A program made the translations under genes and the position numbers. The notes under the pieces are model-generated. The model was not told the DNA's origin, ran no database searches, and was given only the letters and a program-made list of their open reading frames with translations. 64,000 nt of DNA from Clostridia bacterium (GTDB lineage: Bacteria > Bacillota > Clostridia > RGIG6154), in NCBI GenBank assembly GCA_045589295.1, contig JAZNOU010000005.1, forward strand, positions 96,001-160,000, read 5' to 3'. Positions 31,183 through 47,376 of the stretch are shown piece by piece. Every line of letters begins with the position of its first letter. Within the stretch, counting starts at the first letter, position 1.

Positions 31183-31211
31183 TTTACTTAACAACAAATT
31201 TATGGTATTAT
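31183..31211 (+). promoter_or_regulatory. Host tRNA-Pro promoter upstream of attL
   Basis: TTTACT-17-TATTAT with TGn extension, 25 bp upstream of the tRNA 5' fragment. Confidence 0.6.
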
Positions 31212-31236
31212 ATTACTTGTTTGATAAATCATATTT

Positions 31237-31284
31237 CGAGGTGTGGCTCAGTTTGGTAGTACACCTTGGACACAGAGTATACTC
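31237..31284 (+). other. attL: 5' 23 nt of tRNA-Pro(CGG) joined to the element P' arm
   Basis: CGAGGTGTGGCTCAGTTTGGTAG identical to the tRNA at 31515, then TACACCTTGGACACAGAGTATACTC. Confidence 0.85.
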
Positions 31285-31333
31285 AATAAAATTTAATAAT
31301 TATCCATTCATTAACCAAAATGAATGGTATTAT

Positions 31334-31382
31334 CGGGAATTAGCGCAGTTTGGTAGTACACCTTGGACACAGAGTATACTCA
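31334..31382 (+). repeat. Second attL-like unit: 5' end of a different tRNA-Pro plus the same P' arm
   Basis: CGGGAATTAGCGCAGTTTGGTAG then identical arm; 37-bp exact repeat at 31249-31285 and 31346-31382. Confidence 0.8.
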
Positions 31383-31514
31383 TTATATTTTTGTCACTAC
31401 AAAAAAATTCGCCGTTTTTTGACCTTTCGTTCAAAATCGGAGTAGTCATTAAAATGCCTTGCCGTATTTGGCCGACTACAATTTATATTTTGAAAATTGA
31501 ATAAATAATAATAT

Positions 31515-31591
31515 CGAGGTGTGGCTCAGTTTGGTAGAGTACTTCGTTCGGGACGAAGGGGCCGCAGGTTCAAATCCTGTCACCTCGACCA
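31515..31591 (+). tRNA. tRNA-Pro (anticodon CGG), intact with encoded CCA
   Basis: Acceptor CGAGGTG/CACCTCG, anticodon arm CTTCG-TTCGGGA-CGAAG, T-loop GTTCAAATC, ACCA end. Confidence 0.97.
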
Positions 31592-31592
31592 T

Positions 31593-31634
31593 AAAAAGGG
31601 ATTGCTATTCAAAAGACGAATAGTAATCCTTTTT
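31593..31634. terminator. Bidirectional terminator between tRNA and recombinase
   Basis: AAAAAGGGATTGCTATTC...GAATAGTAATCCTTTTT. Confidence 0.8.
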
Positions 31635-31663
31635 TATTATATCAACCACTAATATTGATTTAT

Positions 31664-33316
31664 TTAAGAAGATAATGCTTGAAACCCTAATCCGTTTTCA
31701 AACTGTTCTAAGTTAATTTTGAAATTAACTGTTAATTCATACCCTTTCTTTACTGATATACTATCTATAAGATGTGCAACAATAATTTGTTTTGTTTGTA
31801 AATCAGCATTTTCATAAACATCAGCCCATTTGATAATGTTGTTATATTCTTGTTCTATTTCATAACAGTTTTTCTGTAGCTCCTCAAAGTCTGTTTCACA
31901 TCTTTGTACTTGTTCTAATAAAGGCTGTACTTCATTTTTCAATCTCTTTAGAATTTGAAGTAATTCTTTGACAACTTCATCAAATTGAGATGCACTTACA
32001 ATCTTACTTTCTATTGAACGAATTTCATCTTGCTTTTTTCTATACAAATTCTTTGCTTGATTAAGACTACCTTGTATCCGTTTCCATTCTGTTTGATATT
32101 TGTAATTGATAAACTCACCGCTTTGCAAGGCTTTTGTACGTCTTAAAAGTTGTTTTATCATATCATCAATTACATCATCAATTTTATATGCTCTATATTG
32201 TGTTTGAGCTTCATCACTTACACAGATTTTTTCTTTCTTTCCTTCATACAAGCGATTTTCACAAACATATGTCGGTATACGTGGATTATCTTCGCTGATT
32301 GGTTTATGACCATTTAACCTTGTTGATTTTGTTCGCAATTTAGCTCCGCAACAATCACAATGTATAATTCCTGACACAAGACCTTTTCCAAAAGTGGGAA
32401 CATCTGATACATCATTACAAGACATAGATATTTTTTCCTTTATCTCGGTATCTTTTGAACGTCGTTCGCATCTCAATTTTTGCACAAATTCAAAAACAGA
32501 TGGTTTAATTATTTGCAAGTGTGGATGAATTTTAGATACTGTTTCACCACTTTTCAGTACACCTGTATATGAAATATTATCAAGAATACTGTTAATTGTA
32601 GATTGCCCGAATAGTTTTCCTTTTTTATTTTTTATACATCTTCTTGCTAATTCATTGGAAATCTTTCTTGCTCCCCAAAAATTCTCATATGCTAATTGAA
32701 ATATCAGTTTGACAACTTCTGCTTCATATGAGTCAATTTCCAAATCGTAGACCTCTCTGTTTTTATGATTAATAGTTCCTTTCTTAACAATCTTATAACC
32801 ATAAGGAATATACCCACCTGCATATAATCCATCTTCAACCATTTGTCCTCGTTTCTTGCGTACTCTTGTACTTGTCTTAGCTGATTCACCAGAGCTTTGC
32901 CAGAAACGGATATAATTTATTAGGTTATCAACATGATTTTCAAACTTTTGTTGTCCTTCGACTACACTCCAAACCTCAACCCCTTGTTCAACAAACCATT
33001 TTAAGACAAAAGGAGTTTCACTTTCTATACGTCCCAACCTGTCAAACATAAAGACAAGGAGGATATCAAATTCTTTGCGTAGAGCCTCATCTTTTAATTC
33101 TGTGATTTTATCTCTGTCTTTAGCCGACACCTTGTATCCTGATATGCCTGTCTCAACCTTTTCATCAATTAAAATCCAATCGGGGTGCAATGAAATAAAT
33201 TTACGACATTCTCGGCTCTGTAAAGGTATGTCATATTTATTATTTTCTTCATCAACTAATGTTGCACATTGTTTTAATGTACTGTTACGATACAAAGTCT
33301 TTACTCGTTTTTTCAT
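31664..33316 (-). CDS. Large serine recombinase (integrase)
   Basis: LYRNST catalytic Ser motif, DRLGR, GGYIPYGY, zinc ribbon CDCCG..YVC, coiled coil; ATG 33316 after GGAGGGG. Confidence 0.93.
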   Translation of the reverse strand: MKKRVKTLYRNSTLKQCATLVDEENNKYDIPLQSRECRKFISLHPDWILIDEKVETGISGYKVSAKDRDKITELKDEALRKEFDILLVFMFDRLGRIESETPFVLKWFVEQGVEVWSVVEGQQKFENHVDNLINYIRFWQSSGESAKTSTRVRKKRGQMVEDGLYAGGYIPYGYKIVKKGTINHKNREVYDLEIDSYEAEVVKLIFQLAYENFWGARKISNELARRCIKNKKGKLFGQSTINSILDNISYTGVLKSGETVSKIHPHLQIIKPSVFEFVQKLRCERRSKDTEIKEKISMSCNDVSDVPTFGKGLVSGIIHCDCCGAKLRTKSTRLNGHKPISEDNPRIPTYVCENRLYEGKKEKICVSDEAQTQYRAYKIDDVIDDMIKQLLRRTKALQSGEFINYKYQTEWKRIQGSLNQAKNLYRKKQDEIRSIESKIVSASQFDEVVKELLQILKRLKNEVQPLLEQVQRCETDFEELQKNCYEIEQEYNNIIKWADVYENADLQTKQIIVAHLIDSISVKKGYELTVNFKINLEQFENGLGFQALSS

Positions 33317-33464
33317 TGCTCCCCTCCATGAACATTTTTTCCAATAGTAGTTTTCCAACAGAGTTTTCTGCACTAATATTTCTATCTTCTGAAAAATTTA
33401 CTGTGATTGTTAATCCGTTGATAGTCATTTTTGTAGTGTTATCTGATTGAACATTCTTAATCAT
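33285..33464 (-). CDS. 59-aa TnpW-like small protein (candidate recombination directionality factor)
   Basis: Manually translated MIKNVQSDNTTKMTINGLTITVNFSEDRNISAENSVGKLLLEKMFMEGSNEKTSKDFVS; GAGGTG RBS; overlaps recombinase start. Confidence 0.6.
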   Translation of the reverse strand: MIKNVQSDNTTKMTINGLTITVNFSEDRNISAENSVGKLLLEKMFMEGSNEKTSKDFVS

Positions 33465-33762
33465 CTAACACCTCACCCCCTACACTATCAGACAGAGGGA
33501 GTGAAACTTTTTTATTATATACTGAATCATAAAGAAAGTACACCGTTTTTTTATGATTTATAAACTTTATATTTTGTTTCATAACAAACGCTCCTTATCC
33601 GTTATAAAGCGTTTGGAATGTATTTTGTATGATTATTTATTATTGTTGAGTAAATACATACCTCAACGTGCTTTAATGTGTATTTAAACATTCAAATTTA
33701 TATTGTTAATAGTTGATTTAGGTTATATGGGCGGTTTTTATACCGCCCATATTTTCAGAATT

Positions 33763-34203
33763 CTAAATCAACAATCCGTTCTCATCAAAAAGTTTCCATG
33801 CATTTTCCGAATTTTCTGCTTCGTAATACTCAACAATCGCAGTAATCGGAAAAATGGTTTTTCCATCCTGATATATTTGCACAACTCTTTGTGTCTCAAT
33901 TTCAGAGGTAGTCATATAATCAATATCAGAAAAAAACTTCTTACATTTGGCATGTGAACTTACAAACCCAACACCGCTTGGAATATCAAGAGAAAAAGAA
34001 TCTACTTCTTGCTCTTTGACATCTCCAACATATGTGATTAGACACGCTCCACCATTGAAAATACATATTTCTGATATGTTTGTATCTTTAATATCGGAGT
34101 TTGTGTCACTTGTTACAACGACATATTCTTTTAAAATTTCGTTATTTAGTTTGTTTTCTTTATCATCAATCAAACTAATTCTTTTTACTTTACTTATATC
34201 CAT
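33763..34203 (-). CDS. Hypothetical protein
   Basis: 146-aa ORF, AAGGAG RBS, third gene of rep operon. Confidence 0.7.
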   Translation of the reverse strand: MDISKVKRISLIDDKENKLNNEILKEYVVVTSDTNSDIKDTNISEICIFNGGACLITYVGDVKEQEVDSFSLDIPSGVGFVSSHAKCKKFFSDIDYMTTSEIETQRVVQIYQDGKTIFPITAIVEYYEAENSENAWKLFDENGLLI

Positions 34204-34205
34204 AC

Positions 34206-34565
34206 TTATTTATCTCCTTTATTACTTTTTGTTTTAAATATATTTTGATTTTCCCATTCCTCTTTGTGAACATATTCATTTTCAAATCCGATACAATTTG
34301 ATAGAATATGTTCTTCGTCAATGACAGGTTCATAACCAATCATCATTAAGAATTGTTTAATGAACCAATACGGAGCTTTTATTTCAAATCCTTGTATCAT
34401 TCCGTTTTTAACATTCGGTTTGACTTTATATTTCTTCCTCGATTTTGGAACAAATAAATTTTTCTTTACCATTATTCCAGCATAAAAATCATCAATATTG
34501 GCGGTTGCCATATCATCATAATTTAATCTGAAAAAATTGCAAAAATTATAATTGAAATTTTTCAT
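34206..34565 (-). CDS. Hypothetical protein
   Basis: 119-aa ORF overlapping the rep stop. Confidence 0.65.
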   Translation of the reverse strand: MKNFNYNFCNFFRLNYDDMATANIDDFYAGIMVKKNLFVPKSRKKYKVKPNVKNGMIQGFEIKAPYWFIKQFLMMIGYEPVIDEEHILSNCIGFENEYVHKEEWENQNIFKTKSNKGDK

Positions 34566-35406
34566 AATCTCTATAACCTTTCTTATTATTAAAATATTTT
34601 TTTGTAATGATATTTACAATGTTATCATCTCTTGAAACCTCATAAGAATCATTTTTGTATTCTATAAGGTTATTTGATTCAGCTAATTTCAAAGCTGAAT
34701 CATAAGACATTTGGGACTTTTGAGGGCGGTTTATTTTCCCTCTGCACCTAAACACTTTTTCATATTGCTTATAACAACTTAATCTCATCATTTTTTTATT
34801 GTTGTGAAATGGATTTAGGTAGTCTATTAATCCGTCAATATCATAAATTGGTCGAAAATCGACTTGTCCATTTTTCCACAATGATTTAATTTCAAGTTCA
34901 GACAAGGTCATTTTTTGGTTGTCACATCTTTTCAATAGCAGATGGATGTGAGGATTATAATTTGTTTTAAATCCTTGATATTCAACGACAAACATAGCTT
35001 TGTATAATTTGTGATTATCAACAAACCGACAAAACCTCCCCCAAAAGTTTTTTATGTCTTTTGTAACAGAATTATCTTCTGCTACTTTTCTGTTGTAAGT
35101 CAGAGTGATAAGCCCCTCTGAACTATCACCATTGAAATTAAGTGATATTAACAATGACAAGTCAAGAAAAGTATTTCGTAATGAATTAATATTCCGCTTA
35201 TCATTTAATGATTTGTCAATGGTTTTTATCTCTCCTGTGGTAGTGTTTAAATACTGATTATTAGATATTTTTCTATATCCCACATCCTCACCACTTCGTT
35301 TATGAGATATTAACATATATTTCTCAGAAAAATATACTGTTACAATATCATCTTTATCCAATGGTTTATCCGTTGTTCTTACAACTGAAATTTGATTATG
35401 GTTCAT
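34546..35406 (-). CDS. HUH-family rolling-circle replication initiator-like protein
   Basis: Motif I LITLTY, motif II HIHLLL preceded by VVEYQ, LW..GQVD then candidate catalytic Tyr in LIDYL. Confidence 0.7.
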   Translation of the reverse strand: MNHNQISVVRTTDKPLDKDDIVTVYFSEKYMLISHKRSGEDVGYRKISNNQYLNTTTGEIKTIDKSLNDKRNINSLRNTFLDLSLLISLNFNGDSSEGLITLTYNRKVAEDNSVTKDIKNFWGRFCRFVDNHKLYKAMFVVEYQGFKTNYNPHIHLLLKRCDNQKMTLSELEIKSLWKNGQVDFRPIYDIDGLIDYLNPFHNNKKMMRLSCYKQYEKVFRCRGKINRPQKSQMSYDSALKLAESNNLIEYKNDSYEVSRDDNIVNIITKKYFNNKKGYRDYEKFQL

Positions 35407-35577
35407 ATCAATACAATCACCCTCTAAATTTATTTTCTGTCAGTTTAACGCGTCCGTTAAATTGTTCAGAATGTTATGTGGTAATTACCCTGTCTTTATA
35501 ATAGCATAGAATGAAAAATAATAATATTGACAAATTTTCCTTTAAATTATATAATGTAAATGCAGGAAAAATAAGAG

Positions 35578-36564
35578 GTGAAATATATGAATGAAACAGA
35601 GTTTAAAGGACTATATTATGTTTTTGAATATGATATTGATGCGGGATATATGATTGAATATGTTTCCCCTTGTAATTTGGTTGAATCAAATGGAAACTAT
35701 ATTTATGAAGATACTTGTATTGCAGCTAATTTTACAACTTTATTTTTATGTAGCTATGGTTATTTATCGAAAAAATTCAACAATATAGACACCAAAATCT
35801 TTGACAAGAACTTAAAACAATCACCTCAATTATTAATTATGTTAAAAGACTCTTGTAAAGAAAGTAATATTAAAAGAACAAAAATTGATTTTGAGAACAT
35901 AGAAAAATTTTTAAAAAATACAGATTGTCATAACTTATCAGCTCTAAATTATTTTTGTAGGTTTGCAAACAAAAAAATACCTTCAGCCATTGAAGATGTT
36001 TATAGAGATATACCTTTATTAAAATCTGACAATAAAGCATTCAACTATTTGAAAGACAATATCAAATATCAAAAGAGTAACGATTTAATAGTTGAAGCTG
36101 AAAACAGATTGGGAACCCAATCCTTTCAAAGAATTTACAAAATACTAGATCCAATGGATTTATTTTTAGTAACTTTAGATATTCTATATCAATTAAACTG
36201 GACTATAAAGTTTTGTAAAAATTGTGGACTTCCATTTCTAGTTACCAAAAGGAAGAAAACATTATATTGTTCATATAACAACAACTCTTGTAAAATAGAG
36301 GGCAGAAAAGAAAAAGAAAGAAATCGTTATATAAATAATGAGAGAAACAGACTTTACAGAAATATTAATGGAAAATTTAGTTATAGAGCAATACATTGTA
36401 GAGGACATGAAGATGAATGGGAATCTCTTCATTCTATTTTTCTTAATACAATTTATGATAACAAGAAAAACAAAAATATTATTATATGGTTGAGAAATAT
36501 CGATTCACTATTTAATCTTCATAAAACCGAACTTTTTGAATTACCTGACATCAACTCAATATGA
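35578..36564 (+). CDS. Hypothetical protein with C-terminal zinc-finger (DUF6076-like)
   Basis: CKNCGLPF...YC...SC motif; TTGACA/TATAAT promoter upstream, divergent from rep. Confidence 0.65.
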   Translation: MKYMNETEFKGLYYVFEYDIDAGYMIEYVSPCNLVESNGNYIYEDTCIAANFTTLFLCSYGYLSKKFNNIDTKIFDKNLKQSPQLLIMLKDSCKESNIKRTKIDFENIEKFLKNTDCHNLSALNYFCRFANKKIPSAIEDVYRDIPLLKSDNKAFNYLKDNIKYQKSNDLIVEAENRLGTQSFQRIYKILDPMDLFLVTLDILYQLNWTIKFCKNCGLPFLVTKRKKTLYCSYNNNSCKIEGRKEKERNRYINNERNRLYRNINGKFSYRAIHCRGHEDEWESLHSIFLNTIYDNKKNKNIIIWLRNIDSLFNLHKTELFELPDINSI

Positions 36565-36852
36565 GTTTATGGTTGTGTATTAATAAAACATTGTGAATTT
36601 TTATGAAATTAAAGAAATATATATATTTCTTACTATCAGTCTGTGATGTTTTGATGATGAATTTATGTGTTATATACATGGTATATAACATTCATTTTGT
36701 TATACATATTTATATATTTTTAATATAACAATGAGTCACTTGTATCCATATAATAATTAAAGAGATTTTTTAAAGGGTTGCAGTATTTCTGTAATCCTTT
36801 ATTATTTTTCATTAAAATAAAATTATAAAATTTATATTTTGGAGATGATATT

Positions 36853-37065
36853 ATGATAAAAGTTATTGAAGATTTACAGAATGACAAAATGAAAAACATT
36901 AACAAGAATATTAACACAGTTATTTGCAGATTAAAAACAATACAAGAGAACTTACAATTCACCGCTAAGAAATATGATTTGGAAACATTGTATGACATTT
37001 TATCCCAGATATACGATGACCTTGGTGATTTTAACATTTCAGTATATGATGAAGACAACGTGTAA
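36853..37065 (+). CDS. Small hypothetical protein
   Basis: 70-aa ORF, GGAG RBS. Confidence 0.5.
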   Translation: MIKVIEDLQNDKMKNINKNINTVICRLKTIQENLQFTAKKYDLETLYDILSQIYDDLGDFNISVYDEDNV

Positions 37066-37081
37066 ATTGGAGGTGGTAGTT

Positions 37082-37264
37082 ATGAATAATGAAAAAAGAA
37101 TAAACAATTCATTTATAAATGATATAATGTTCGCAAAAGAAGCAATAAAGACTCTACAAGACTCAATATATCGATATTACCCTGAAAACTGTTTTGAAGT
37201 CCTCCCATTACTTCACAAATCTTATGATAATCTTGCATTAACAATTTATCGTTTAACAAAATAA
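37082..37264 (+). CDS. Small hypothetical protein
   Basis: ATG 37082 after GGAGGTG; in frame with track ORF 36974-37264. Confidence 0.5.
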   Translation: MNNEKRINNSFINDIMFAKEAIKTLQDSIYRYYPENCFEVLPLLHKSYDNLALTIYRLTK

Positions 37265-37400
37265 ATTAATATGTTCAAAGTGCATAAACTCACCTTACAA
37301 ACGACTTTATTAACCTTTTTATATAAACCTTATTATTAAAATATTAAGTTTGTTTTAAATGGGTTTGAGTGATTAAAGCATAATTTAAGTATAACCACAA

Positions 37401-37438
37401 AAAAGACAGGTTGCCTATCATTGACAACCTGTCTTTTT
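37401..37438. terminator. Bidirectional terminator
   Basis: AAAAGACAGGTTG...CAACCTGTCTTTTT. Confidence 0.75.
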
Positions 37439-37556
37439 CCTATTTCGATTATGCCAAATTATTCTTCTTTATTATTCCCCACTTTTATTAAAAAGGTTTC
37501 TATTCCCATAATAGTCAGCCCCAACCAGCAAAAGCTCTAATATCCCTGTATAAACA

Positions 37557-38108
37557 TCATCTGTACATTTGAGTTGCAATATCTGTAATCAAAACACAAG
37601 CAGTCATACTATCCTGAATACTTACAGAATCTGTGCAAATCTCTTGATAATCAAATGTGCTACCATAATACTTTGCAGAAGCCTCAGGGACAATTGTTTT
37701 ATCAGCATTTATTGAAAACAGATATACATATGTAAAATCTTCTTTTGTGGAATAATCCTTTGCTGAAGCGATACATACATTAACACTTAATTCTCCATAA
37801 TATTTATCATTATCATAAACGAACTCACTATCTTGAATTATTTTTTCTATAAAACTACTATCTTCTTTTATTTTCTCTTCACTCCATGATGTTGAAACCA
37901 TCGTCATTATTTTGTCATTTTCGTCATTATAAGAGTCCATTTTCTTTACAAAATCAGATACCGTTTTCATTTCATATGAATTATCTTCAGCAAAAATTTG
38001 ATAATCTTCGACCGATGTTATAAATTCTTCATTTGTTACCCCACATCCAGTTACATTAATCAACACCAGCAAACATAGTAACAAAATGCTTATTTTTTTT
38101 GAATACAT
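37557..38108 (-). CDS. Putative lipoprotein
   Basis: MYSKKISILLLCLLVLINVTGC lipobox; GGAGGG RBS before ATG 38108. Confidence 0.7.
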   Translation of the reverse strand: MYSKKISILLLCLLVLINVTGCGVTNEEFITSVEDYQIFAEDNSYEMKTVSDFVKKMDSYNDENDKIMTMVSTSWSEEKIKEDSSFIEKIIQDSEFVYDNDKYYGELSVNVCIASAKDYSTKEDFTYVYLFSINADKTIVPEASAKYYGSTFDYQEICTDSVSIQDSMTACVLITDIATQMYR

Positions 38109-38124
38109 CCGTAATCCCTCCCTA

Positions 38125-38355
38125 TTATTGTGCACGTCTAACACACTCTTCACAATATGATAAGGTGTTTATTAATGAGCCTCTATTTTTACAACTATTA
38201 TTTGCACACTTATGCAAAGTACAGTAATTAGACCCCAATGGACTTCTTTCAGATGGGCATCCCGAGACGGAACAATATTTTACTCCGCAGCCTGAAAGCA
38301 AAATCAACAGTATTGATAATAATACCATAGTTAAAATAAACGATGTTTTTTTCAT
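38125..38355 (-). CDS. Small cysteine-rich lipoprotein
   Basis: LLSGC lipobox then CxxxxC/YCxxHxC/YCxxC repeats; AAGGAGG RBS. Confidence 0.7.
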   Translation of the reverse strand: MKKTSFILTMVLLSILLILLSGCGVKYCSVSGCPSERSPLGSNYCTLHKCANNSCKNRGSLINTLSYCEECVRRAQ

Positions 38356-38396
38356 ATGTAGTTCCTCCTTAGCTAATAAAATAATTTTATTAAAAA

Positions 38397-39596
38397 TTAT
38401 TCGACTTTCTTCATAGTTGCTTGTGTTTTCCCTACAGATTCTATTTCATACTTAAACCCATTTTCTATTCTTACATGATTATCGTATTGAACATTCCCCA
38501 TTTTGAATATAATCTTGTCTCCATTCACTCTGTATGGAATTACTATTATATCCTGTCCACGTAGAATATCTGCCTCTTTCGATGTGTCTTCGGGTCTATA
38601 TGTAGAAAAGTCAATAGTAAATGTTCCGTTGGTTTTATATTCCCATATTGAGCCGTCAGGATTTTGCCATTTACCTATAATAGCTTTTTCTAAAGGCAAT
38701 TTCGTTTCAGTAGGTTGATATGTTAAATCTTTTTTAGGATATATATAGATGTATCGTTTATTATCATCAGAACTATATGTATAGAAACAAACATTTCCTA
38801 CAACAGCAATAGCTTTTTCTTCATTATCAATTATGGATTCTTTTAATACAGACCAAATCTTGTTTTCATAAAGACTTTCATCCAATTCAGGAAGCAAAGC
38901 CATAGAGATAAACTTGGTTTGTTCTCTTATGACATCTTTTTCGCTTGTCGACATATTATTGTATACATCATTATCAATTTTCCAAATTACACTGCTAATA
39001 TGATTTGAAAACTCATCTACGTAAACTCGTTGTTCGCTTATTACTGACGGAAAAAAGTTACGTGTTATCTTTGTACCATTATCATTTGTATAAAATCCTT
39101 CTATAGTTGAACTATAAAACGATGGAATAGTATATTTTGAGCTATTTGTATAATGTTCAGCTTCGACATAATAATTGTAATTGTCAATAAAATCCTCATA
39201 ATCAATATCAAAATACCTTTCACCATTTTCATCAACATTTATGTTAGCAAATCTATCAATACTTTTTGAGGCAGTTTCCAACTTATTGTTTTGTTGCGAC
39301 ATAGTTGCACCATTGTTATAATTATTCTGACCCACTTCTTTATTAGATTTGTTATTCAATGGTGTATTTAACCTCCACGCAACCAAAGCACATATTATCA
39401 AAATGCATGTAGTTATTATAGTGTTTATAATCACTCTTTCTTTCTTTTTCCTCAATGCTGACTGCTTATCCTCATTTTTTTCGAGGGTGTTTGTGTAAGC
39501 ATACACTTTGCCACATTCCGAACAGATATATCGTCCGTTGTAATTTACTATTTTCCCTTCACACTTAGTACAGATTAAAGATTTAATTTCTTGCAT
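38397..39596 (-). CDS. Zinc-ribbon, single-TM membrane-anchored protein
   Basis: CTKC..CSEC, one TM helix, C-terminal IIGKW lipocalin-like motif. Confidence 0.7.
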   Translation of the reverse strand: MQEIKSLICTKCEGKIVNYNGRYICSECGKVYAYTNTLEKNEDKQSALRKKKERVIINTIITTCILIICALVAWRLNTPLNNKSNKEVGQNNYNNGATMSQQNNKLETASKSIDRFANINVDENGERYFDIDYEDFIDNYNYYVEAEHYTNSSKYTIPSFYSSTIEGFYTNDNGTKITRNFFPSVISEQRVYVDEFSNHISSVIWKIDNDVYNNMSTSEKDVIREQTKFISMALLPELDESLYENKIWSVLKESIIDNEEKAIAVVGNVCFYTYSSDDNKRYIYIYPKKDLTYQPTETKLPLEKAIIGKWQNPDGSIWEYKTNGTFTIDFSTYRPEDTSKEADILRGQDIIVIPYRVNGDKIIFKMGNVQYDNHVRIENGFKYEIESVGKTQATMKKVE

Positions 39597-39744
39597 TACT
39601 TCTCCTCCTTAAACTTTATTCTTAAAAACCTTTCTCATATTATATCACACACTTTTTCGACATGCAACTATTTTTTAGTTCATATTTTGACTATATCGTT
39701 AAATAATAATATCAGTTAAAATTATATTATATGGAGGTGTTAGT

Positions 39745-39918
39745 ATGGATTTTATAATAAAAAAACCTACAAGTTCAAACCGAACAGTCAGAATGCCTGA
39801 TGAGTTGATTGACAAAATTGGCAAACTCGCAAATGACAAGGGTATTTCCTTTAATCAGTTAGTTATTCAATGTTGCGAATTTGCATTGGAACACTTAAAC
39901 GATAAGGAAAGCAAGTAA
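39745..39918 (+). CDS. 57-aa ribbon-helix-helix DNA-binding protein
   Basis: Manually translated MDFIIKKPTSSNRTVRMPDELIDKIGKLANDKGISFNQLVIQCCEFALEHLNDKESK; GGAGGTG RBS; below track cut-off. Confidence 0.75.
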   Translation: MDFIIKKPTSSNRTVRMPDELIDKIGKLANDKGISFNQLVIQCCEFALEHLNDKESK

Positions 39919-39943
39919 TATAACCAGCTCCTTCTATGTGTGG

Positions 39944-40738
39944 TTATATCCAATCTTCAAGTTCAGATACCATCCCTTTTTCAAAGGATTCCTTTTGAAA
40001 AGGGATGGTTTTTTGTTCTGTCTCATTTTCTTTGATTGCTGTAACCTTTAACTCTACTTTTACAGAATCATATTTATTTTCCATAATGACATTTCCATAG
40101 GAGTCAATTATACCAATCCCATTTTCCCCCTCTGTGATATTGCAAACATTTTGACGGTTAATAACAATCGGATGGTTAAATATTTCCTTATACACCTTAT
40201 ATTCACCCTCTTGTGGATACAGATATGTACTATATCTTGCATCATAAAATACAGGTCCTTTTTCCGTATTTCCACAAAAGCAAAAACAAGACTCACTATA
40301 TGAGGTATATTCCTTTTTATAAATCTCTTTGCCCAATTCTCCGTATAAGATATACTGATACTTTTCATCTTTGCAATATAAAAACGGAGTTTCAACAACA
40401 ATGTCAACAAAATCCCGTGCTGTGTTTGTTGCTGAATTATAGTATCTTACTTTTTGGTCGTTACTGAAAATCAAATCATGACCGAATGTATCCAGCGTGT
40501 CATACTCACTTTCAGCAATAAAACATACTTTGTCTGTTTCTATTCTGACCGCTCCGATTTTACCTTTTTTATGTATAACAAATACGTTCTTTCCATACAT
40601 AAAAATATTATCATACTCAATTGGTAAAATACATAAGTTGTCAGTAAGGTTTTTAATTCCCATCATCCCGTTATCAGATATAACTTTAATACTGTTTAAA
40701 ACTGATTTTTCAAACACATTCCTTCTGCTAAATAACAT
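39944..40738 (-). CDS. WG-repeat-like protein
   Basis: Repeats such as MMGIKN..ILPIEYD, KIGAV..SEYD, GIGIIDSYGNVIMENKYD. Confidence 0.6.
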   Translation of the reverse strand: MLFSRRNVFEKSVLNSIKVISDNGMMGIKNLTDNLCILPIEYDNIFMYGKNVFVIHKKGKIGAVRIETDKVCFIAESEYDTLDTFGHDLIFSNDQKVRYYNSATNTARDFVDIVVETPFLYCKDEKYQYILYGELGKEIYKKEYTSYSESCFCFCGNTEKGPVFYDARYSTYLYPQEGEYKVYKEIFNHPIVINRQNVCNITEGENGIGIIDSYGNVIMENKYDSVKVELKVTAIKENETEQKTIPFQKESFEKGMVSELEDWI

Positions 40739-40889
40739 AATATCCTCCCATTTTTATAATTGTAACTGCCATTTTTATAAATATAAACCAAGAGCACATA
40801 AATGTACATAGCCAAGTTACAAAAAAGACCGCCTATGTAATTATACTTTTAACTACATAGAAAGTCTTGGACATTTTGTCCACTTTTGT

Positions 40890-42434
40890 TTAATTAGGAA
40901 TTATTCTGTTATCTTTTAATAAATACCCTGTGATATCACCTACATCTTCCCAAGTCACGTTTAGTTTTCTTATATTATTATTTATCCAAAATGCATACCC
41001 TTTAGAGAACATCTCTCCTTCGCATAAGACAAATCCTGTTTTTTCATCATAGCTGATACACCAGGCTATACAATAATTAAAATTATTATAAATCTGTTCT
41101 CCTGCTACACCGATTACACCTTCATTAAGTCCTATTAAAAGTTCTGTTCCACCATCACCATCAAAGTCATAACAGATTATGTCAGCATTTTTTCTTAAAT
41201 CATCCGAATAATCCTTAGAATATTCGTATTGGTTGTTAAAACTAAATTTATTACTGTATTTATGACCTTTGCTGTCATCTAACGATACAGATAAAATCCC
41301 ACCATTCAAAGTTATATCTGCATCTACAATAGTATTATTCTTTCCTATTTTTATTTTTCCGTTTTTATTTATATCTTCTAAAAGCAAAATATGTTCCCAA
41401 GGTTGTTGCATTGAGAAAACACAAACATTGGACAACAAGTTGTATTTTTTATACTCAGACTCTTTCTGTCCTTCTAAAAATCCGTAAAATGTTCCTTCGA
41501 AATCCAACTCCTTGTTTTCCTGATTCGTTACCTCTTTTTCCTCAGTTTTTTCAATAACTATATTATTTTTCTCAACCTCTGTTTCAGGCTCGTTTGTAAC
41601 CTCAGATTCAGGCACATCTGTTTTAGTTTTCTGTTCTGTCTTTTTATCGTTGCCCTGTTGTGTTTTAACTTCTATTCCATTTTCATAATTCAAAAGGTTA
41701 ATTATAATCAATGCTAATACAATTACTGAGAGTGCAAAAATGAAGAGATATTTTAACGAGTTAAGTGTTATCGCTCTTTTTACCGCTTTCACACTTTGAT
41801 ATCTTTCAGACGGGTCAAGCCTTTTACACTTTTCTGCTACCTTATATAAAAAGCCTTTTATATTTATGTAATCAAGAAGTGTTTTTAAAGTTACACCAAA
41901 CGCATATATATCTGTTTTAAAATCAGTAGGAAGCATACCATATTGTTCAATAGGTGCATATCCAAATGTACCTATTGTTTCGGTATCACGTCGTACTTCT
42001 TTTCGGTAAATTCGTGCAATATCATAATCTGTCAACCATATGTGGTCTGATTCATCAATCAGAATATTGTCAGGTTTAATATCTCTATGTATTATGTCGT
42101 ATTCGTGGAGTTTATCAAGAGCTGATAAAAGTTGATTAGATATAGAATATATCTGCTTTTTACTTAACTTTTTGCCCTGTGCCATATAATCACTTAAAGA
42201 CATACCTTTAACATATTCTTCAATAACTATAGTGTCTGTATCAAATCCGACATAATAAATCTTTGGAATACTTTCGTGATTTATCTTTTTAAGTAATTTA
42301 TATATTTCTCTTTTGTCACCGCTTATTACTCGTTTTAAATATCTCTTTTTGTCAGAGCCTTCCATCAATAAAATTTTTTGACGTTCACTCTGCCTTATTA
42401 TTTCTATTTCCCTTATGGAGTCTATATCGAACAT
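40890..42434 (-). CDS. Membrane-anchored Hanks-type Ser/Thr protein kinase
   Basis: IEEYV, HRDIKPDN, DYD, GTFGYAPIE, DIYAFG, TM helix, extracellular domain; ATG 42434 after AAGGAG. Confidence 0.88.
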   Translation of the reverse strand: MFDIDSIREIEIIRQSERQKILLMEGSDKKRYLKRVISGDKREIYKLLKKINHESIPKIYYVGFDTDTIVIEEYVKGMSLSDYMAQGKKLSKKQIYSISNQLLSALDKLHEYDIIHRDIKPDNILIDESDHIWLTDYDIARIYRKEVRRDTETIGTFGYAPIEQYGMLPTDFKTDIYAFGVTLKTLLDYINIKGFLYKVAEKCKRLDPSERYQSVKAVKRAITLNSLKYLFIFALSVIVLALIIINLLNYENGIEVKTQQGNDKKTEQKTKTDVPESEVTNEPETEVEKNNIVIEKTEEKEVTNQENKELDFEGTFYGFLEGQKESEYKKYNLLSNVCVFSMQQPWEHILLLEDINKNGKIKIGKNNTIVDADITLNGGILSVSLDDSKGHKYSNKFSFNNQYEYSKDYSDDLRKNADIICYDFDGDGGTELLIGLNEGVIGVAGEQIYNNFNYCIAWCISYDEKTGFVLCEGEMFSKGYAFWINNNIRKLNVTWEDVGDITGYLLKDNRIIPN

Positions 42435-42505
42435 TTTAGACAACTCCTTGCATATTTCGACAATGTATACTATAATAATTATAGTAAATTCAGGGAGGAT
42501 TGTCA

Positions 42506-42925
42506 ATGTATACAATAACAGATGAATTACTAAAAGAACTCAAAAACGCATCAGATATAGAATCGTTTTTCAAATCTCATGAGAATCAGTTTATAAACGA
42601 AACAACATCAAGTTATCTAAATAAAATGCTCGAATTAAGAAATATAAATATTTCTGCTATTGCAAAAAATTCAGGTACAGGTGAGTATGTATATAAGATA
42701 TTCAGAGGTGACAGAACCGCTTCCCGTGATATTTTAATTTCTATCGCTTTTAGTATGAAATTATCTTTAGAAGAAACTCAGTTGCTACTTCGAATTTCTA
42801 AATTCGCCATACTTGATTCACGTAACAAAAGAGATAGTATTATAATATATGGTCTAACTCACAATTTAACTGTTTTTCAAGCAGATGATTTGTTAGAAGA
42901 ACAAAATATGACAACATTAAATTGA
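42506..42925 (+). CDS. Putative XRE-like helix-turn-helix regulator
   Basis: ISAIAKNSGT..YVYKIFRG, RDILISIAF..LSLEETQLLL; divergent from kinase. Confidence 0.6.
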   Translation: MYTITDELLKELKNASDIESFFKSHENQFINETTSSYLNKMLELRNINISAIAKNSGTGEYVYKIFRGDRTASRDILISIAFSMKLSLEETQLLLRISKFAILDSRNKRDSIIIYGLTHNLTVFQADDLLEEQNMTTLN

Positions 42926-42938
42926 TTTATACAAATGC

Positions 42939-43514
42939 TCATAAATTTACCGCATTGTAACAATCTATAATCACTTTTTGAGTAATACCTATATATCTTA
43001 ATGTAATTGCACTCGATGAATGATTTAGGAGTTTTTGAAGTGTTTCTAATGGTACATTATTAATGTATCTGTGATATGCCATAGTCTTTCTTAATGTATG
43101 TGTACCGAAATTACCTTTAATCCCTAAATCCTTTGTAAGTGTTTTAATGATATGATGCAGAGGTCTTACTCCTAAATGACTACCCTTTCGACTTTTAAAT
43201 AAAAAATCCTCCATATCATAGTTTGCTAAAGAGTTAAGATATACCTGTATCGCACCTTTAGCATTTTTATTTAATGCGAAATTCCTTGTTTTTCCTGTTT
43301 TCTGTTCTTTAATAGTTACTGTATCAAATATTATATTTCCATCTGTAACATCATTAATTTTTAATGATAATAAATCTCCTGCTCTTAATCCAACATTGAT
43401 TCCAACAACAAATATACAGTAATCTCTCTTATTTTCTTTTCCGTATAAATATTGCTTGATTTTGTTAATATCTCTTGTGTTTTTAATTGGTTCAACCTCT
43501 TTTGGTAATGTCAT
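42939..43514 (-). CDS. Small tyrosine recombinase (catalytic domain only)
   Basis: GLRAGDLL, EQKT, HTLRKT, LNHSS, LRYIG (R-K-H-R-H-Y); 191 aa. Confidence 0.9.
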   Translation of the reverse strand: MTLPKEVEPIKNTRDINKIKQYLYGKENKRDYCIFVVGINVGLRAGDLLSLKINDVTDGNIIFDTVTIKEQKTGKTRNFALNKNAKGAIQVYLNSLANYDMEDFLFKSRKGSHLGVRPLHHIIKTLTKDLGIKGNFGTHTLRKTMAYHRYINNVPLETLQKLLNHSSSAITLRYIGITQKVIIDCYNAVNL

Positions 43515-43826
43515 ATGTTTAATCTCCTTTTTCAGTTGTAACTTAATTTTTTACAATTATATATCGCGTGTGTGAAAAAGTACACCGTTTTTCACATAAA
43601 GAAAAATATTACCTTTTGCCCATTTAATGAACATAAGGTAATATTCAAAACTTGTTTTTATTAAATTTTAAACCTCACATTTCCCGAAACCATTACAAGA
43701 GTTAAGTTTGAGATGTTTGTGTGAATGATACCTTTTGTTAAAAGGTATTATTCGTTGACAATTAAACATTGAAAGAATCTAAAATTTTTGATATACTTTA
43801 TACATAAATGTATAGGAGGAATTTGC

Positions 43827-44744
43827 TTGAATCTTTTCATAATTGGAAACGGATTTGATTTGGCTCACAACTTGCCAACACAATATATGAACTTTAGAGA
43901 ATATTTAGAGGAAAGAGATTGGAACTTTCTTATGATGTTAGAAGAAACATATGGATTTTGTTCAGATAGCAACATAGAATATCTAAAAGAATATTTATGG
44001 CAGAATTTTGAAACCAATTTGTCCTACATCAATGAAACAGAAATAATAGAACTCGGCTCACATATTGACTTAGGATTAGAAGGTGGTGATTTTGGAGTAG
44101 AAGAAACGTTAGATTATTATTGGGAAAACCAATATGGCTACATAAAAAAATTAAATGAATATTTATATTCTTGGATAAATCAAATTGATATTAATGTTGA
44201 TAGAAAGACAAATTTTATTAACGAAGAAAACTATGATTTATTCATAAATTTTAATTATACACTATTGTTAGAAGAACTATATAATATAGATTCATATGAT
44301 ATTCTCCATATTCACGGCTCCGTATATCCTCACGACACACCGCCGATTATAGGACACGGAGATTATAAGAAAATAGAAGAAATGTCATCAAAAGTTTCTG
44401 AATATTCAAATGTAAATATGGAAAAGGAAACGAGCATATATAATGCTGTTCGTAATTTTTATGAAAGAACTTTTAAGGATGTAAAACACTACATACGGTG
44501 GAACGAGAATTTTTTTGTTAGATTAAAGGAAATTGAACAAGTGTTTATTGTAGGTCATTCCTTTGGTGATGTGGATTTACCCTACTTTAAAGAGATATTG
44601 TCTTATGTTCCTAAAAACGCACAATGGAATGTATATTATTATAAACCTGAAGAAGAATTATTTTTTAAAGATAAACTGATTGAAATTGGAATTAATGAAG
44701 AGAATATAAAGATGTATCATACATCAACATTTTTTAATATGTAA
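43827..44744 (+). CDS. AbiH-family abortive infection protein (SIR2-like fold)
   Basis: LFIIGNGFDLAHNLPTQY, NFNYT, HIHG, GHSFGDVDLPYF; TTG 43827 after GGAGGA. Confidence 0.85.
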   Translation: MNLFIIGNGFDLAHNLPTQYMNFREYLEERDWNFLMMLEETYGFCSDSNIEYLKEYLWQNFETNLSYINETEIIELGSHIDLGLEGGDFGVEETLDYYWENQYGYIKKLNEYLYSWINQIDINVDRKTNFINEENYDLFINFNYTLLLEELYNIDSYDILHIHGSVYPHDTPPIIGHGDYKKIEEMSSKVSEYSNVNMEKETSIYNAVRNFYERTFKDVKHYIRWNENFFVRLKEIEQVFIVGHSFGDVDLPYFKEILSYVPKNAQWNVYYYKPEEELFFKDKLIEIGINEENIKMYHTSTFFNM

Positions 44745-44833
44745 ACTATTATTATATGCAGCTAACGGATTATTACATTTGGAATTATATAACTAAAGAT
44801 ATGAATAAAAACTCTATCAAGGAGGGAGTACAT

Positions 44834-46462
44834 ATGAATAAAATTGAAAACACATATTATCAAAAATCTAATATCGAATATCTTAAAAATATATACGGAA
44901 AAGAACTTTGGGTTCAAGTCTCTGGACGCAGAGATTTAAATGGAGCCGTTGCAAGCTTTTGGACAGGATTAGTTTATTTGGATGATTTAGATAAAATTAC
45001 TCAAAAATCAGATTGGGAGGCTCATATTGGAACACAGGCTCCTGGTTTTGTCGAATATGGTAATGGTGATATAGAGTATGAGAAAATCTCAGCTTCGAAT
45101 ATTTATTGTGAACACATTGTAAACTATAGAGATTTTTATGGCATAAAGCCTGAATATGTTGAAGTTGTCGATGAATTTAGACTCCTTAACAATTTATATC
45201 ATGATTTCCAATCTAACACACTTTACGCAATTAAGGATAATGGAATTTGTGATGAAGTAGTTAAAATTGAAAATAATACGAATGTTTTTATAAAGCTAAA
45301 GTATTTAATCAATTATGCAACGGCTAAACAAATGGCTTTACTACTGTTTTTTGATATTGACCAGCAAATTTCTGGAACATTGGAAAAAAATCAATTAAAA
45401 AAATTTTCTGATAGTCATATTGGTAAAGATATTGTATACAGCATTTGGGGAGATGAAATGGGAGGGAGTAATTATGTATATAGTATCTTAATGGGTAAAA
45501 AGATAATTATGCCTAAACCAATTAATGAATGTGGTTATTGGCCATATGAGAAAGAATATGAATATTTAGACTTTATTATTGGAAATGATGAATACGGTGA
45601 AAACAAAACATTTACATCTAATCCTAACAAATTAGCCAACTACTTCGGTGCAAATCCAGATGCCCCTCACTATTTAACACCTGTTTTCTTTAATAAAGAA
45701 GTATTGCAAAAATACTTATCTTCTGATATTTATAGCATAGAAGATGGTTACTTAAGATGTCGCGGACTTTGGGGCTTAAGAATGGATAACCATCATAAAG
45801 ACTATGTAGTTGTTTACTTGGGAGATTTAGGCAAAGAATTACCTTATGAAGAACAACACCATTGGAAAAATTATAATATTGTTTCTGACGATACGATTAG
45901 TAATGCAAAATTCAAAAGAGATTTCTTAGGAATTCCAAGCAACGCTGAAATTTCTGATTTAAAATTCAAAGCAGATTTTTCATGTTTTCAAAAACAATGG
46001 TACAATAAATTTGGATGGTATTTATTTTTACCGCTTACCTCTGATGATGAATATAATTTTAGTAAAATACATATTCCAATCGTGAATACACAAGATGAAT
46101 TTGACCATTTAGTATTGTCATTAGTAAAAACAATTATTGATTCACTTAACGAAAAAGAAATAAAAAAATTAGTGAAAGACACATTGGATAAAAAGAGTGG
46201 TCAAGAATTAAAAGGAAGTATATCTAAACTTGAAAGATGGTTTGAAGAAAGTAATCTTACAGACTATATTGAACACATAGAATTTTTAAGGAATTTGCAA
46301 AATCTACGTTCTGCCGGAACAGGACATCGAAAAGGAAGCAACTATGATAAAATTTCAAAAGAGTTTGATTTAGATACTGAAAGTTACACAAATGTATTTG
46401 ATTCGATATTAGAAAAGACAAATATGTTTTTAAGTTACTTAACCAATACCTTTTTAGCATAA
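44834..46462 (+). CDS. Hypothetical protein with C-terminal helical region carrying an R-x5-H (HEPN-like) motif
   Basis: LQNLRSAGTGHRKG near C-terminus; ATG 44834 after GGAGGGAG; follows the AbiH gene. Confidence 0.6.
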   Translation: MNKIENTYYQKSNIEYLKNIYGKELWVQVSGRRDLNGAVASFWTGLVYLDDLDKITQKSDWEAHIGTQAPGFVEYGNGDIEYEKISASNIYCEHIVNYRDFYGIKPEYVEVVDEFRLLNNLYHDFQSNTLYAIKDNGICDEVVKIENNTNVFIKLKYLINYATAKQMALLLFFDIDQQISGTLEKNQLKKFSDSHIGKDIVYSIWGDEMGGSNYVYSILMGKKIIMPKPINECGYWPYEKEYEYLDFIIGNDEYGENKTFTSNPNKLANYFGANPDAPHYLTPVFFNKEVLQKYLSSDIYSIEDGYLRCRGLWGLRMDNHHKDYVVVYLGDLGKELPYEEQHHWKNYNIVSDDTISNAKFKRDFLGIPSNAEISDLKFKADFSCFQKQWYNKFGWYLFLPLTSDDEYNFSKIHIPIVNTQDEFDHLVLSLVKTIIDSLNEKEIKKLVKDTLDKKSGQELKGSISKLERWFEESNLTDYIEHIEFLRNLQNLRSAGTGHRKGSNYDKISKEFDLDTESYTNVFDSILEKTNMFLSYLTNTFLA

Positions 46463-46480
46463 ATTTTAAAGGAGATACAA

Positions 46481-47053
46481 ATGGAATTTTATGAAATTAT
46501 GATTAACCTATCTATAGGAATAACGGGCGGTATATTTTCTAGTATTATTGTTTCACGTATCTTTTTAATACATTCTTCGCATTCAGAACAATTAGCAAGA
46601 GTGCAAGAGCATTTTGAAAATACTTACAGATTGAGTGGAACATTACTTTTTTATATGTATGCATTTCAAAAAGATGAGAATAATTTTGACGATGATACTA
46701 TTAATCGCTTTAACGACGCATTGCTAAAAGATATACACGAAGTATCAAAACAAGAATGCGAAAAATTTCGGTATATGATTTTCGATGACTTAGAAATAGA
46801 ATTATATAAAATCGCTGTTAATTTAAACGATTTAATGGAAGGAACACTATCATTAAATAAAGTCGATATATCTATAGTAAGAAAACTTCATAAAGACTTA
46901 TTTGATATACAAGATAGATTTAAAAAGTATAAGATAACTAACAACAAGCATTTTGTGACAAAAATAAAAAAGGACAAAATATTACGAATACTCATTCTTG
47001 CTTTGGTTATAATACTCATTTCAACAATAATATCTTGTATATGTGCTAAATAG
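46481..47053 (+). CDS. Hypothetical membrane protein (N- and C-terminal TM helices)
   Basis: Hydrophobic LSIGITGGIFSSIIV and ILILALVIILISTIISCI; AAGGAG RBS. Confidence 0.7.
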   Translation: MEFYEIMINLSIGITGGIFSSIIVSRIFLIHSSHSEQLARVQEHFENTYRLSGTLLFYMYAFQKDENNFDDDTINRFNDALLKDIHEVSKQECEKFRYMIFDDLEIELYKIAVNLNDLMEGTLSLNKVDISIVRKLHKDLFDIQDRFKKYKITNNKHFVTKIKKDKILRILILALVIILISTIISCICAK

Positions 47054-47134
47054 AAGTTTATCAATGCAATCAAATATTACAGCTGTATTTTGCTATTAAA
47101 ACGCAAAATTATTCATAATAAGAATAATTTACAA

Positions 47135-47215
47135 GAGTTTACTCTATATCCAACGTGGTAGAGTACTTCGTTCGGGACGAAGGGGCCGCAGGTTCAAATC
47201 CTGTCACCTCGACCA
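47135..47215 (+). pseudogene. attR: element P arm joined to the 3' 60 nt of tRNA-Pro(CGG)
   Basis: 47156-47215 identical to 31532-31591; preceded by GAGTTTACTCTATATCCAACG, the inverted partner of the attL arm. Confidence 0.9.
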
Positions 47216-47376
47216 GTCGAGAGCCTCGACACGCATTATCGCGTACCGAGGTTCTTTTTAATTTTATATTTTCGTTCACGCGTTCAAGCTTGACACGTTA
47301 TGAACACTCGCACCACGTCGGAACAAGTTTTGCTTGTTCCAATTTTTTTATGCGTATTATGTATAAACTGTTTTTC

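Follow-up and report, generated by a model that had tools for sequence, protein, structure and literature searches.

The DNA analyzed here (the window) is a stretch of 64,000 nucleotides from a Clostridia bacterium (GTDB lineage Bacteria; Bacillota; Clostridia; RGIG6154), that is, positions 96,001 to 160,000 of the forward strand of contig JAZNOU010000005.1 in NCBI GenBank assembly GCA_045589295.1. The source genome is a 1.54-Mb draft in 22 contigs (35.5% GC) with three tRNA-Pro genes (anticodons GGG, CGG, and UGG). Within the window an insert of 15,902 bp (31260–47161) separates the two parts of a host tRNA-Pro(CGG) gene; it includes a whole tRNA-Pro(CGG) gene, the single tRNA that ARAGORN finds in the whole window (31515–31591), and, next to it, a gene for a large serine recombinase (LSR). 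From sequence comparisons we conclude with considerable confidence that the insert is an integrative element that was moved by its LSR, integrated at the host tRNA-Pro(CGG) gene, and was nested earlier in the tRNA gene carried by a relative.

Results

Two stacked units precede an intact tRNA gene

The left end of the insert is a junction of host and element DNA (attL) that is followed by a second, similar junction. Each unit (31237–31284 and 31334–31381, beginning 97 nt apart) consists of a 23-nt tRNA-Pro-like 5′ half that ends in GGTAG and a 25-nt arm (TACACCTTGGACACAGAGTATACTC). The window contains exactly two copies of the arm, both on the plus strand (100 shuffles gave no match), and no further copy occurs in the 1.54-Mb genome with five mismatches allowed. 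The original prediction, made from the letters of this DNA alone, had described two units in which unlike tRNA-Pro 5′ halves run, at the same AG, into an identical 25-nt arm, with an intact tRNA gene behind them; this is the arrangement in the sequence.

The 5′ half of the outer unit (CGAGGTGTGGCTCAGTTTGGTAG) forms 7/7 acceptor pairs and 4/4 D-stem pairs with a tRNA 3′ part at 47162–47215, so this is the host tRNA-Pro(CGG), split at A21–G22 (our own numbering, read off the sequence), and its detached 3′ part now lies 15.9 kb from attL. The left junction keeps 23 nt of the tRNA and the right junction (attR) keeps 54 nt; ARAGORN calls a tRNA at neither, and the sequence common to both is TGGTAG only. 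The carried tRNA starts with the same 5′ half as the outer unit and its 3′ 54 nt are identical to 47162–47215, that is, it is itself a perfect copy of the host attachment site (attB); its last 60 nt are repeated exactly at 47156–47215, 15.6 kb off, at the far end of the element, which the original prediction had not covered. The 5′ half of the inner unit (CGGGAATTAGCGCAGTTTGGTAG) is of another kind: its CGGGAAT start is absent from every tRNA of the host genome, and with the attR 3′ part it gives three acceptor mispairs and one D-stem mispair. On paper, then, excision through the second scar would yield a mispaired chimeric tRNA, as had been foreseen.

The arms identify the likely type of reaction. 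When the 26 nt that precede the AG in attR are compared, in fixed register, with the reverse complement of the 26 nt that follow the AG in attL, 19/26 symmetric positions agree, a value reached by 1 of 200,000 random pairs drawn from the window. Joined on paper, the two arms give a rebuilt element attachment site (attP) of ~54 bp with imperfect symmetric arms around a non-palindromic AG, and this putative layout is a hallmark of large serine recombinases. The predicted crossover is at the AG, on the border of the D-loop and D-stem of the tRNA. All of this anatomy is read directly from the window; its parts are listed in Table 1.

The LSR gene ends 72 nt past the carried tRNA, on the opposite strand. 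Its true start is probably ~20 codons further in than that of the open reading frame (ORF), as close homologues have 549–550 aa. The protein matches the Pfam families Resolvase (42.9 bits; cut-off 23.3) and Recombinase (46.3 bits; cut-off 21.1), and in an alignment of 10 relatives the motif Y28-R29-x-S31-T32, Q35, and the cysteines C339, C342, C371, and C384 are invariant.

The inner unit matches the left end of a related element

We scanned 185,579 species, each represented by one genome, for a pattern that covers both arms and obtained 11 loci, of which three are true relatives. The other eight are not attachment sites: seven (L002–L008) share one conserved coding context and one (L011) is unrelated. 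In the seven, which come from genomes of several phyla, the P arm read as its reverse complement (21 nt) matches conserved coding sequence, presumably RhuM-like; these matches are probably due to chance, aided by the degenerate pattern.

The most informative relative is genome G061, in which a host promoter is followed by a host 5′ half (CGGGATA...), the arm, a 49-nt spacer, a whole tRNA-Pro(CGG), and an LSR gene whose product is 89% identical to that of the window. The attR of this element, 11.9 kb away, has the same kind of P arm and also shows the symmetric-arm pattern; the host 3′ part found there pairs with the host 5′ half, not with the tRNA of the element. The carried and the split host tRNA of G061 differ in the acceptor and anticodon stems, where the changes compensate each other, and the carried tRNA begins exactly with the inner 5′ half of the window.

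Over arm, spacer, and inner 5′ half (31260–31356), the window agrees with G061 at 93/97 positions and with a second relative, G063, at 91/97, and in both genomes the whole element-borne tRNA begins with precisely the inner 5′ half; this homology, too, is observed directly. The 93/97 match to the left end of the G061 element identifies the inner unit as the left end of an element of that kind (A-type) whose carried tRNA was severed at the AG, where a second P′ arm now follows. Judged from its sequence, such a unit is the signature of an attP × attB reaction in which the carried tRNA served as attB. Thus, the proposal that a carried replacement tRNA can itself be the landing site for a relative finds support, and the source of the inner-scar tRNA that it left to be sought is the carried tRNA of a G061/G063-type element.

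The A-type allele also occurs outside intact elements. Genome G063 has one unit and the A-type tRNA, and the window LSR, used as query, found no LSR match in that genome. In G412 (L137, G412:C3), the CGGGAAT allele stands behind a lone scar (CGGAAATTAGCGCAGTTTGGTAG with a related but different arm, CGCGTATTGGATACGCAGTATACTC) located 13 nt before a whole tRNA-Pro(CGG), with no LSR within 1.5 kb. Among 67 genomes of the family of G061, one (G456) has the allele as a plain chromosomal gene. It carries two differences, located on opposing strands of the anticodon stem; the 3-kb locus gave no LSR match, and no scar was seen over the 220 nt upstream. By its sequence this gene is a possible native source of the allele.

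A proposed sequence of events

We propose that the attP of an element of this kind would recombine with the host tRNA-Pro(CGG) gene at the AG where D-loop and D-stem meet. A serine integrase would need its own arms on both sides of the 2-bp crossover, and its attP would differ from attB; since the arms of attP thus could not be tRNA sequence, no tRNA would be rebuilt at a junction, and so the whole gene would be carried. A complete tRNA-Pro(CGG) with its own leader would therefore be placed right behind the P′ arm, at a cost: every element would bring a fresh landing site for its relatives. At an earlier time, the present element (B-type) would have entered the carried tRNA of an A-type element, producing the succession of tRNA_A 5′ half, AG, and P′ arm. 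Because the carried tRNA lies within 49–133 nt of the P′ arm, scars would accumulate on the left only: a nested insertion would set a second attL beside the first, and the element bodies would pile up on the far side. We infer this order of events, the activity of the recombinase, and the need for the carried tRNA.

The body of the outer element is absent from the window; the attR 3′ part is of host type from its first base, and host genes come next. The outer body could have been lost by two routes. In the first, recombination of the outer attL with the inner attR would release a circle made of the B-type element and a 97-nt scar unit, which would later have integrated here; in the second, the outer body would have been deleted in place, between two right junctions. 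We slightly favor the first, which would leave as reciprocal product a host 5′ half set directly on the 3′ part of the element tRNA.

Unit number varies among relatives

The number of units varies among relatives from 0 to 3, as is directly observed; the original prediction had named a constant number beforehand as a result that would speak against it. G061 has one unit, and G062 has two near-identical units (97/98) followed by the tRNA and LSR genes.

The wider LSR group gives further cases. The window LSR has 18 close full-length protein clusters (74–91% identity), and beyond a gap in identity there are >2,000 relatives at ~36–41%. In a sample of the class (399 scored genomes), 12 genomes, including that of the window, have an LSR relative at E ≤ 1e-60, and at 7/12 of these loci a tRNA is called beside the LSR gene. 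Genome G340 has a host 5′ half, an arm unrelated to that of the window, ~150 nt of spacer, a whole tRNA-Pro(UGG), and a convergent LSR gene; both ends of this 38.5-kb element were found, and the attR arm mirrors the P′ arm at 17/20 positions (by eye).

In viral contigs we located 80 LSR loci by alignment, 67 of which were evaluable (at least 400 nt beyond the LSR gene; a tRNA was counted within 700 nt). A convergent tRNA-Ala or tRNA-Val is present at 12 of the 67 and a co-directional tRNA call at six; 49 have none. Half of the convergent loci (L070, L071, L074, L077, L079, and L081; 6/12) have one 5′-half-plus-arm unit. In L090 a script finds three units with two different 5′ halves and spacers in the order alpha-beta-alpha, that is, arrays that log different tRNA alleles do exist, as had been suggested; in L092 the script counts two, and inspection by eye adds a third that is degenerate and has a different arm. 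No unit is present in L097, L132, L107, or L116; the last two contain an intact attP-like palindrome ~60 nt before the whole tRNA, a layout that we assign, from its sequence, to the putative free form. These loci are not all independent, L071/L077 and L107/L116 being close copies. The same design recurs, with unrelated arms, in G340 and the viral loci, where the LSRs are only 30–43% identical. The further suggestion that an element could swap its complementing tRNA agrees with the window, in which the tRNA at work is of host type, unlike the logged one.

One unit is also present at L142, another locus of the alpha type. Past its tRNA and terminator (L142:797-838) is a sequence that resembles the alpha P′ arm (GGCAAGCGCATCGCTTTTATGCCCC), where the LSR match is 24% identical; this may mark a further insertion or a rearrangement. 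At three other loci (L036, L037, and L038; genomes G137, G362, and G076), ARAGORN calls a 'tRNA-Asn' ~125 nt past an LSR gene on the same strand; the 5′ part is not tRNA-like, the Rfam score is 28.7 bits against a 29-bit threshold, and the call looks like a candidate attR junction of a P arm and a tRNA-Asn 3′ part. L042 seemingly has an attP followed by a whole tRNA-Asn, and we regard the tRNA-Asn loci as a second layout of the same idea. Rfam motifs are also present inside elements with LSR relatives, namely a pemK RNA (L033:3609-3688, 59.8 bits) and an abiF RNA (L042:4138-4174, 37.1 bits).

Possible portability of the scars and alternative explanations

If the first of the two routes is general, the scars are portable: recombination of the outer left with the inner right junction would pack the 97-nt record of a tRNA allele into a circle, the reciprocal product would be a zero-unit relative without a left junction and locked in the chromosome (L097-type), the array would be a travelling log whose unit number is set by the recombinase rather than by decay, and the LSR group would move between tRNA isotypes (Pro, Ala, Val, and perhaps Asn) by way of the near-universal GG-N-AG of the D-loop. 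We advance this only tentatively, as a possibility somewhat less likely than not. Locus L097 is consistent with it: it is 96.7% identical to L090 over 5.9 kb, has no units, and runs without a break from the host 5′ half into the 3′ part of the element tRNA. This arrangement could also be made by homologous recombination between 5′ halves, so it does not decide between the routes. If portability is correct, nature would supply a collection of integrases whose landing sites already exist in many bacteria.

The strongest alternative concerns the route alone, nested insertion being common to both. The scar would be a local relic: an A-type element integrated first, a B-type element entered its tRNA, and the rest of the A-type element was lost by homologous recombination between the right junctions, so that the scar records the history of this chromosome. 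Deletion products of the expected kind exist, given that G063 and G412 keep a unit and a whole tRNA with no recombinase beside them; such lone scars show that deletions happen too. Moreover, no scar-bearing free form was found in searches of viral and metagenome contigs or among the viral LSR loci. However, the attR 3′ part of the window is purely of host type after the AG, which requires the crossover of the deletion to fall within the ~27 nt of P arm and core, and the zero-unit L097 is the reciprocal product expected of composites made by a recombinase. We consider the local relic possible but somewhat doubtful.

A chimeric assembly is highly improbable. The genome is a draft of the metagenome type, and a shared repeat of 37 nt (CAGTTTGGTAG with the arm) might have linked two populations of the sample, so that the units would not stand in series in one genome; but an assembler can output the junction of the tRNA_A 5′ half with the arm only if real DNA contains it, ordinary reads span a repeat this short with copies 97 nt apart, and stacked units are present in independent assemblies (G062, L090, and L092).

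We find it scarcely credible that another recombinase, for example, the 191-aa tyrosine recombinase of the element, made the junctions with the LSR as a passenger. The gene for this protein is conserved (89%) between the window element and that of G061, but the protein consists of the catalytic domain only, the ends are of the serine type (a 2-bp core flanked by symmetric arms, and no sequence but TGGTAG in common), and the same layout follows LSR relatives that have different arms and cargo (G340 and the viral loci).

A tandem duplication that produced the second unit by replication slippage or unequal crossing-over between 5′ halves, with no second insertion, can be almost wholly discounted: it could account for the two units of G062 and for a single low-depth contig from sequencing run X4 described below, but the 5′ halves of the window are only 70% alike (in a 27-nt register), the 49-nt and 133-nt spacers are unrelated in length and sequence (unlike halves and spacers that exclude this origin for the window, not for G062), the outer spacer and the inner 5′ half match those of another kind of element, and the spacers of L090 alternate.

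The X4 contig in question (depth 2.5, with 44 letters on its shorter side) connects 31526 back to 31346; it would be a B-in-B scar and is a weak hint of one.

Several observations weigh against the reading of the insert as an LSR-moved element nested in a relative. No empty site was found in three same-genus genomes, where the flanking genes are ~70–72% identical and have no adjoining tRNA-Pro(CGG); these genomes are only ~72% identical and do not keep synteny (n = 3). The excised (attP) form of the window element has no match in viral contigs, and metagenome contigs gave one arm match with no tRNA half adjoining, which we take to be chance; the best sequencing run contained only 0.18 of the sampled words of the draft genome. 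The LSR match to Zn_ribbon_recom (23.4 bits) is under the Pfam cut-off of 25.3, no recombination directionality factor is recognized among the ORFs of the element, and the LSR gene of G061 (L025, G061:C48:23410-25116) has one in-frame TAA, that is, this copy may be decaying. Unequal exchange between repeated 5′ halves could also produce arrays of identical units, as in G062, with no second insertion. The 49 of 67 viral loci with no tRNA call indicate that tRNA targeting is the habit of only part of the LSR group. Finally, a tRNA with a UGG anticodon may read CCG codons; the genome has a tRNA-Pro(UGG), so it may be able to do without tRNA-Pro(CGG), and a carried copy is only presumably needed.

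Other searches place the locus among its relatives. Same-species contigs from two other runs fit the window up to 31259 and resume at 47222, which is compatible with the junction, although they reveal neither an empty nor a filled site. The other contigs in runs X1–X4 are short pieces of relatives and matches to other tRNA-Pro genes. A 152-nt contig from X4 matches 31361–31512 with two differences. DNA searches of plasmid and phage collections gave tRNA-level matches only, and a search of the phage collection with the LSR protein gave only three unannotated faecal records (33–37% identity) with no tRNA call.

Cargo, backbone, and flanking genes

The interior of the element has a GC fraction of 0.26–0.32 and the flanks 0.34–0.39. 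The left flank encodes a copper ATPase with HMA domains; DUF554 and DAHP synthase genes are in the right flank. Two segments of the element, 42935–43747 and 44830–47216, are shared with the G061 element at 84–89%, and the cargo in the middle differs. The short tyrosine recombinase and the right-end ORFs look like backbone, with possible roles in resolution or directionality; the kinase and AbiH are, by their sequence matches, putative defence-type cargo. No phage structural genes were detected in the window element.

Promoter-like sites in this region are weak evidence, three being found where 2.5 are expected in shuffles; relatives have host-type promoters at the place of the site upstream of the host 5′ half. 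A 100-aa ORF (31202–31504, plus strand) spans both scar units and their spacers; gene callers may annotate it, and it is very likely spurious.

Table 1. Features of the split tRNA-Pro(CGG) locus, in window coordinates.
Feature	Position	Strand	Basis or remark
Promoter-like site TTTACT-17-TATTAT, TG before second hexamer	31183–31211	+	Consensus match only; upstream of host tRNA-Pro 5′ half
Host tRNA-Pro(CGG) 5′ 23 nt, B half-site of attL, CGAGGTGTGGCTCAGTTTGGTAG	31237–31259	+	Predicted crossover AG 31258–31259
P′ arm copy 1, outer attL, TACACCTTGGACACAGAGTATACTC	31260–31284	+	Inverted repeat of P arm 47134–47159
A-type spacer, 49 nt	31285–31333	+	Putative leader of the earlier element's replacement tRNA
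5′ half of replacement tRNA-Pro(CGG) of the earlier A-type element, CGGGAATTAGCGCAGTTTGGTAG	31334–31356	+	Now B half-site of the inner attL scar
P′ arm copy 2, inner attL scar	31357–31381	+	Second exact copy of the 25-nt arm
B-type spacer, 133 nt	31382–31514	+	Promoter-like site 31482–31509 inside
Whole replacement tRNA-Pro(CGG), element-carried	31515–31591	+	The genome's only tRNA-Pro(CGG)
Large serine recombinase, 569-aa ORF	31664–33373	-	Pfam domains and catalytic motif
Cargo and backbone region	33763–47053		Rolling-circle Rep-like protein, kinase, tyrosine recombinase, AbiH, unknown ORFs
Rolling-circle Rep-like protein	34546–35406	-	In cargo and backbone region
Ser/Thr kinase like PD-T4-6	40890–42515	-	PADLOC PD-T4-6 and mad6 models
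Short tyrosine recombinase, 191 aa, catalytic domain only	42939–43514	-	Domain match
AbiH	43788–44744	+	Next: 568-aa protein of no known family
Two ORFs, 568 and 190 aa, right end	44756–47053	+	No known function
P arm and crossover AG (47160–47161) of attR	47134–47161	+	Inverted-repeat match to P′ arm
Host tRNA-Pro(CGG) 3′ 54 nt, B′ half-site of attR	47162–47215	+	Host genes DUF554 and DAHP synthase next

Discussion

Comparison with known systems

The closest described strategy is tRNA-dependent lysogeny, reported for the actinobacteriophages Fionnbharth, other K4 phages, and cluster L (Guerrero-Bustamante and Hatfull, mBio 2024, PMC10865867). According to the accessible text of that paper, the tRNA target is not rebuilt and a tRNA of the same kind is carried as compensation, the integrases are lambda-like tyrosine integrases with a ~10-bp core in the anticodon loop, and the hosts are Actinobacteria (PMC10865867). 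Carriage of a whole tRNA is likewise found in the window, G061, G062, G340, and the viral loci. The window element differs in its LSR, its site at the AG of the D-loop, its low-GC Clostridia host, the lack of detected phage structural genes, and its natural stacked scars; it has no short core of the tyrosine-integrase type, the junctions and the adjoining gene being of the serine type.

Phage-type large serine integrases include those of phiC31, Bxb1, A118, and others. The window enzyme resembles them in its Resolvase and Recombinase domains (its zinc ribbon match is below the cut-off, so that this domain is a candidate only), and its attachment sites in the ~50-bp attP, the imperfect inverted repeats, the non-palindromic dinucleotide, and the absence of a long junction repeat. 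To our knowledge, the described targets of such integrases are protein-coding genes; the window element differs in having a tRNA D-loop as target and a whole replacement gene beside attP. In the main text of a survey of LSRs (Durrant et al. 2022, PMC10083194), the word tRNA occurs 0 times.

A serine recombinase, DsiB, acts in the ssrA islands of Dehalococcoides (McMurdie et al. 2011, PMC3146451). As in the window, these islands, in the available text, combine a serine recombinase with a small structured-RNA gene, and accretion leaves rows of partial copies; there, the crossover is in the T-loop of the tmRNA, rebuilding of the gene relies on a 20-bp 3′ repeat, and successive repeats have whole islands between them (PMC3146451). 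In contrast, the rows of partial target copies described here (two in the window and 0–3 in relatives) are 5′ halves with no islands between them, stacked 97 nt apart in the window, and the gene is replaced, not rebuilt.

Classical tRNA and tmRNA islands and prophages reportedly use tyrosine integrases (the names associated with this work are said to be Williams, in 2002, Reiter, in 1989, and Islander/TIGER). The window shares with classical tRNA islands the use of tRNA genes as landing sites and the tRNA fragments left as fossils; in those islands, the 3′ part is duplicated so that the junction is a working tRNA, and their sites (3′ end, T-loop, or anticodon loop) do not include the D-loop.

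Our literature search (outside which subscription journals and supplements lay) found no paper with a serine integrase at a tRNA D-loop or carrying a replacement tRNA. From its sequence, we regard the window element as a probable variant of the break-and-replace strategy for tRNA genes, that is, a serine-integrase, D-loop version for which we found no earlier description. The stacked scars point to the use of a carried tRNA as a landing site; in print, to judge from the accessible text, this has been only a speculation, and for plasmids, namely that the tRNA on one plasmid may act as attB for the integration of another (PMC10865867). For annotation, rows of half-tRNAs and junctions miscalled as tRNAs can mislead, and these integrases may serve as tools where a target organism already has the tRNA site. 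With this reading, the strategy described in 2024 for phages with tyrosine integrases would extend to LSRs, to the D-loop, and to both phages and small defence-gene islands of Clostridia.

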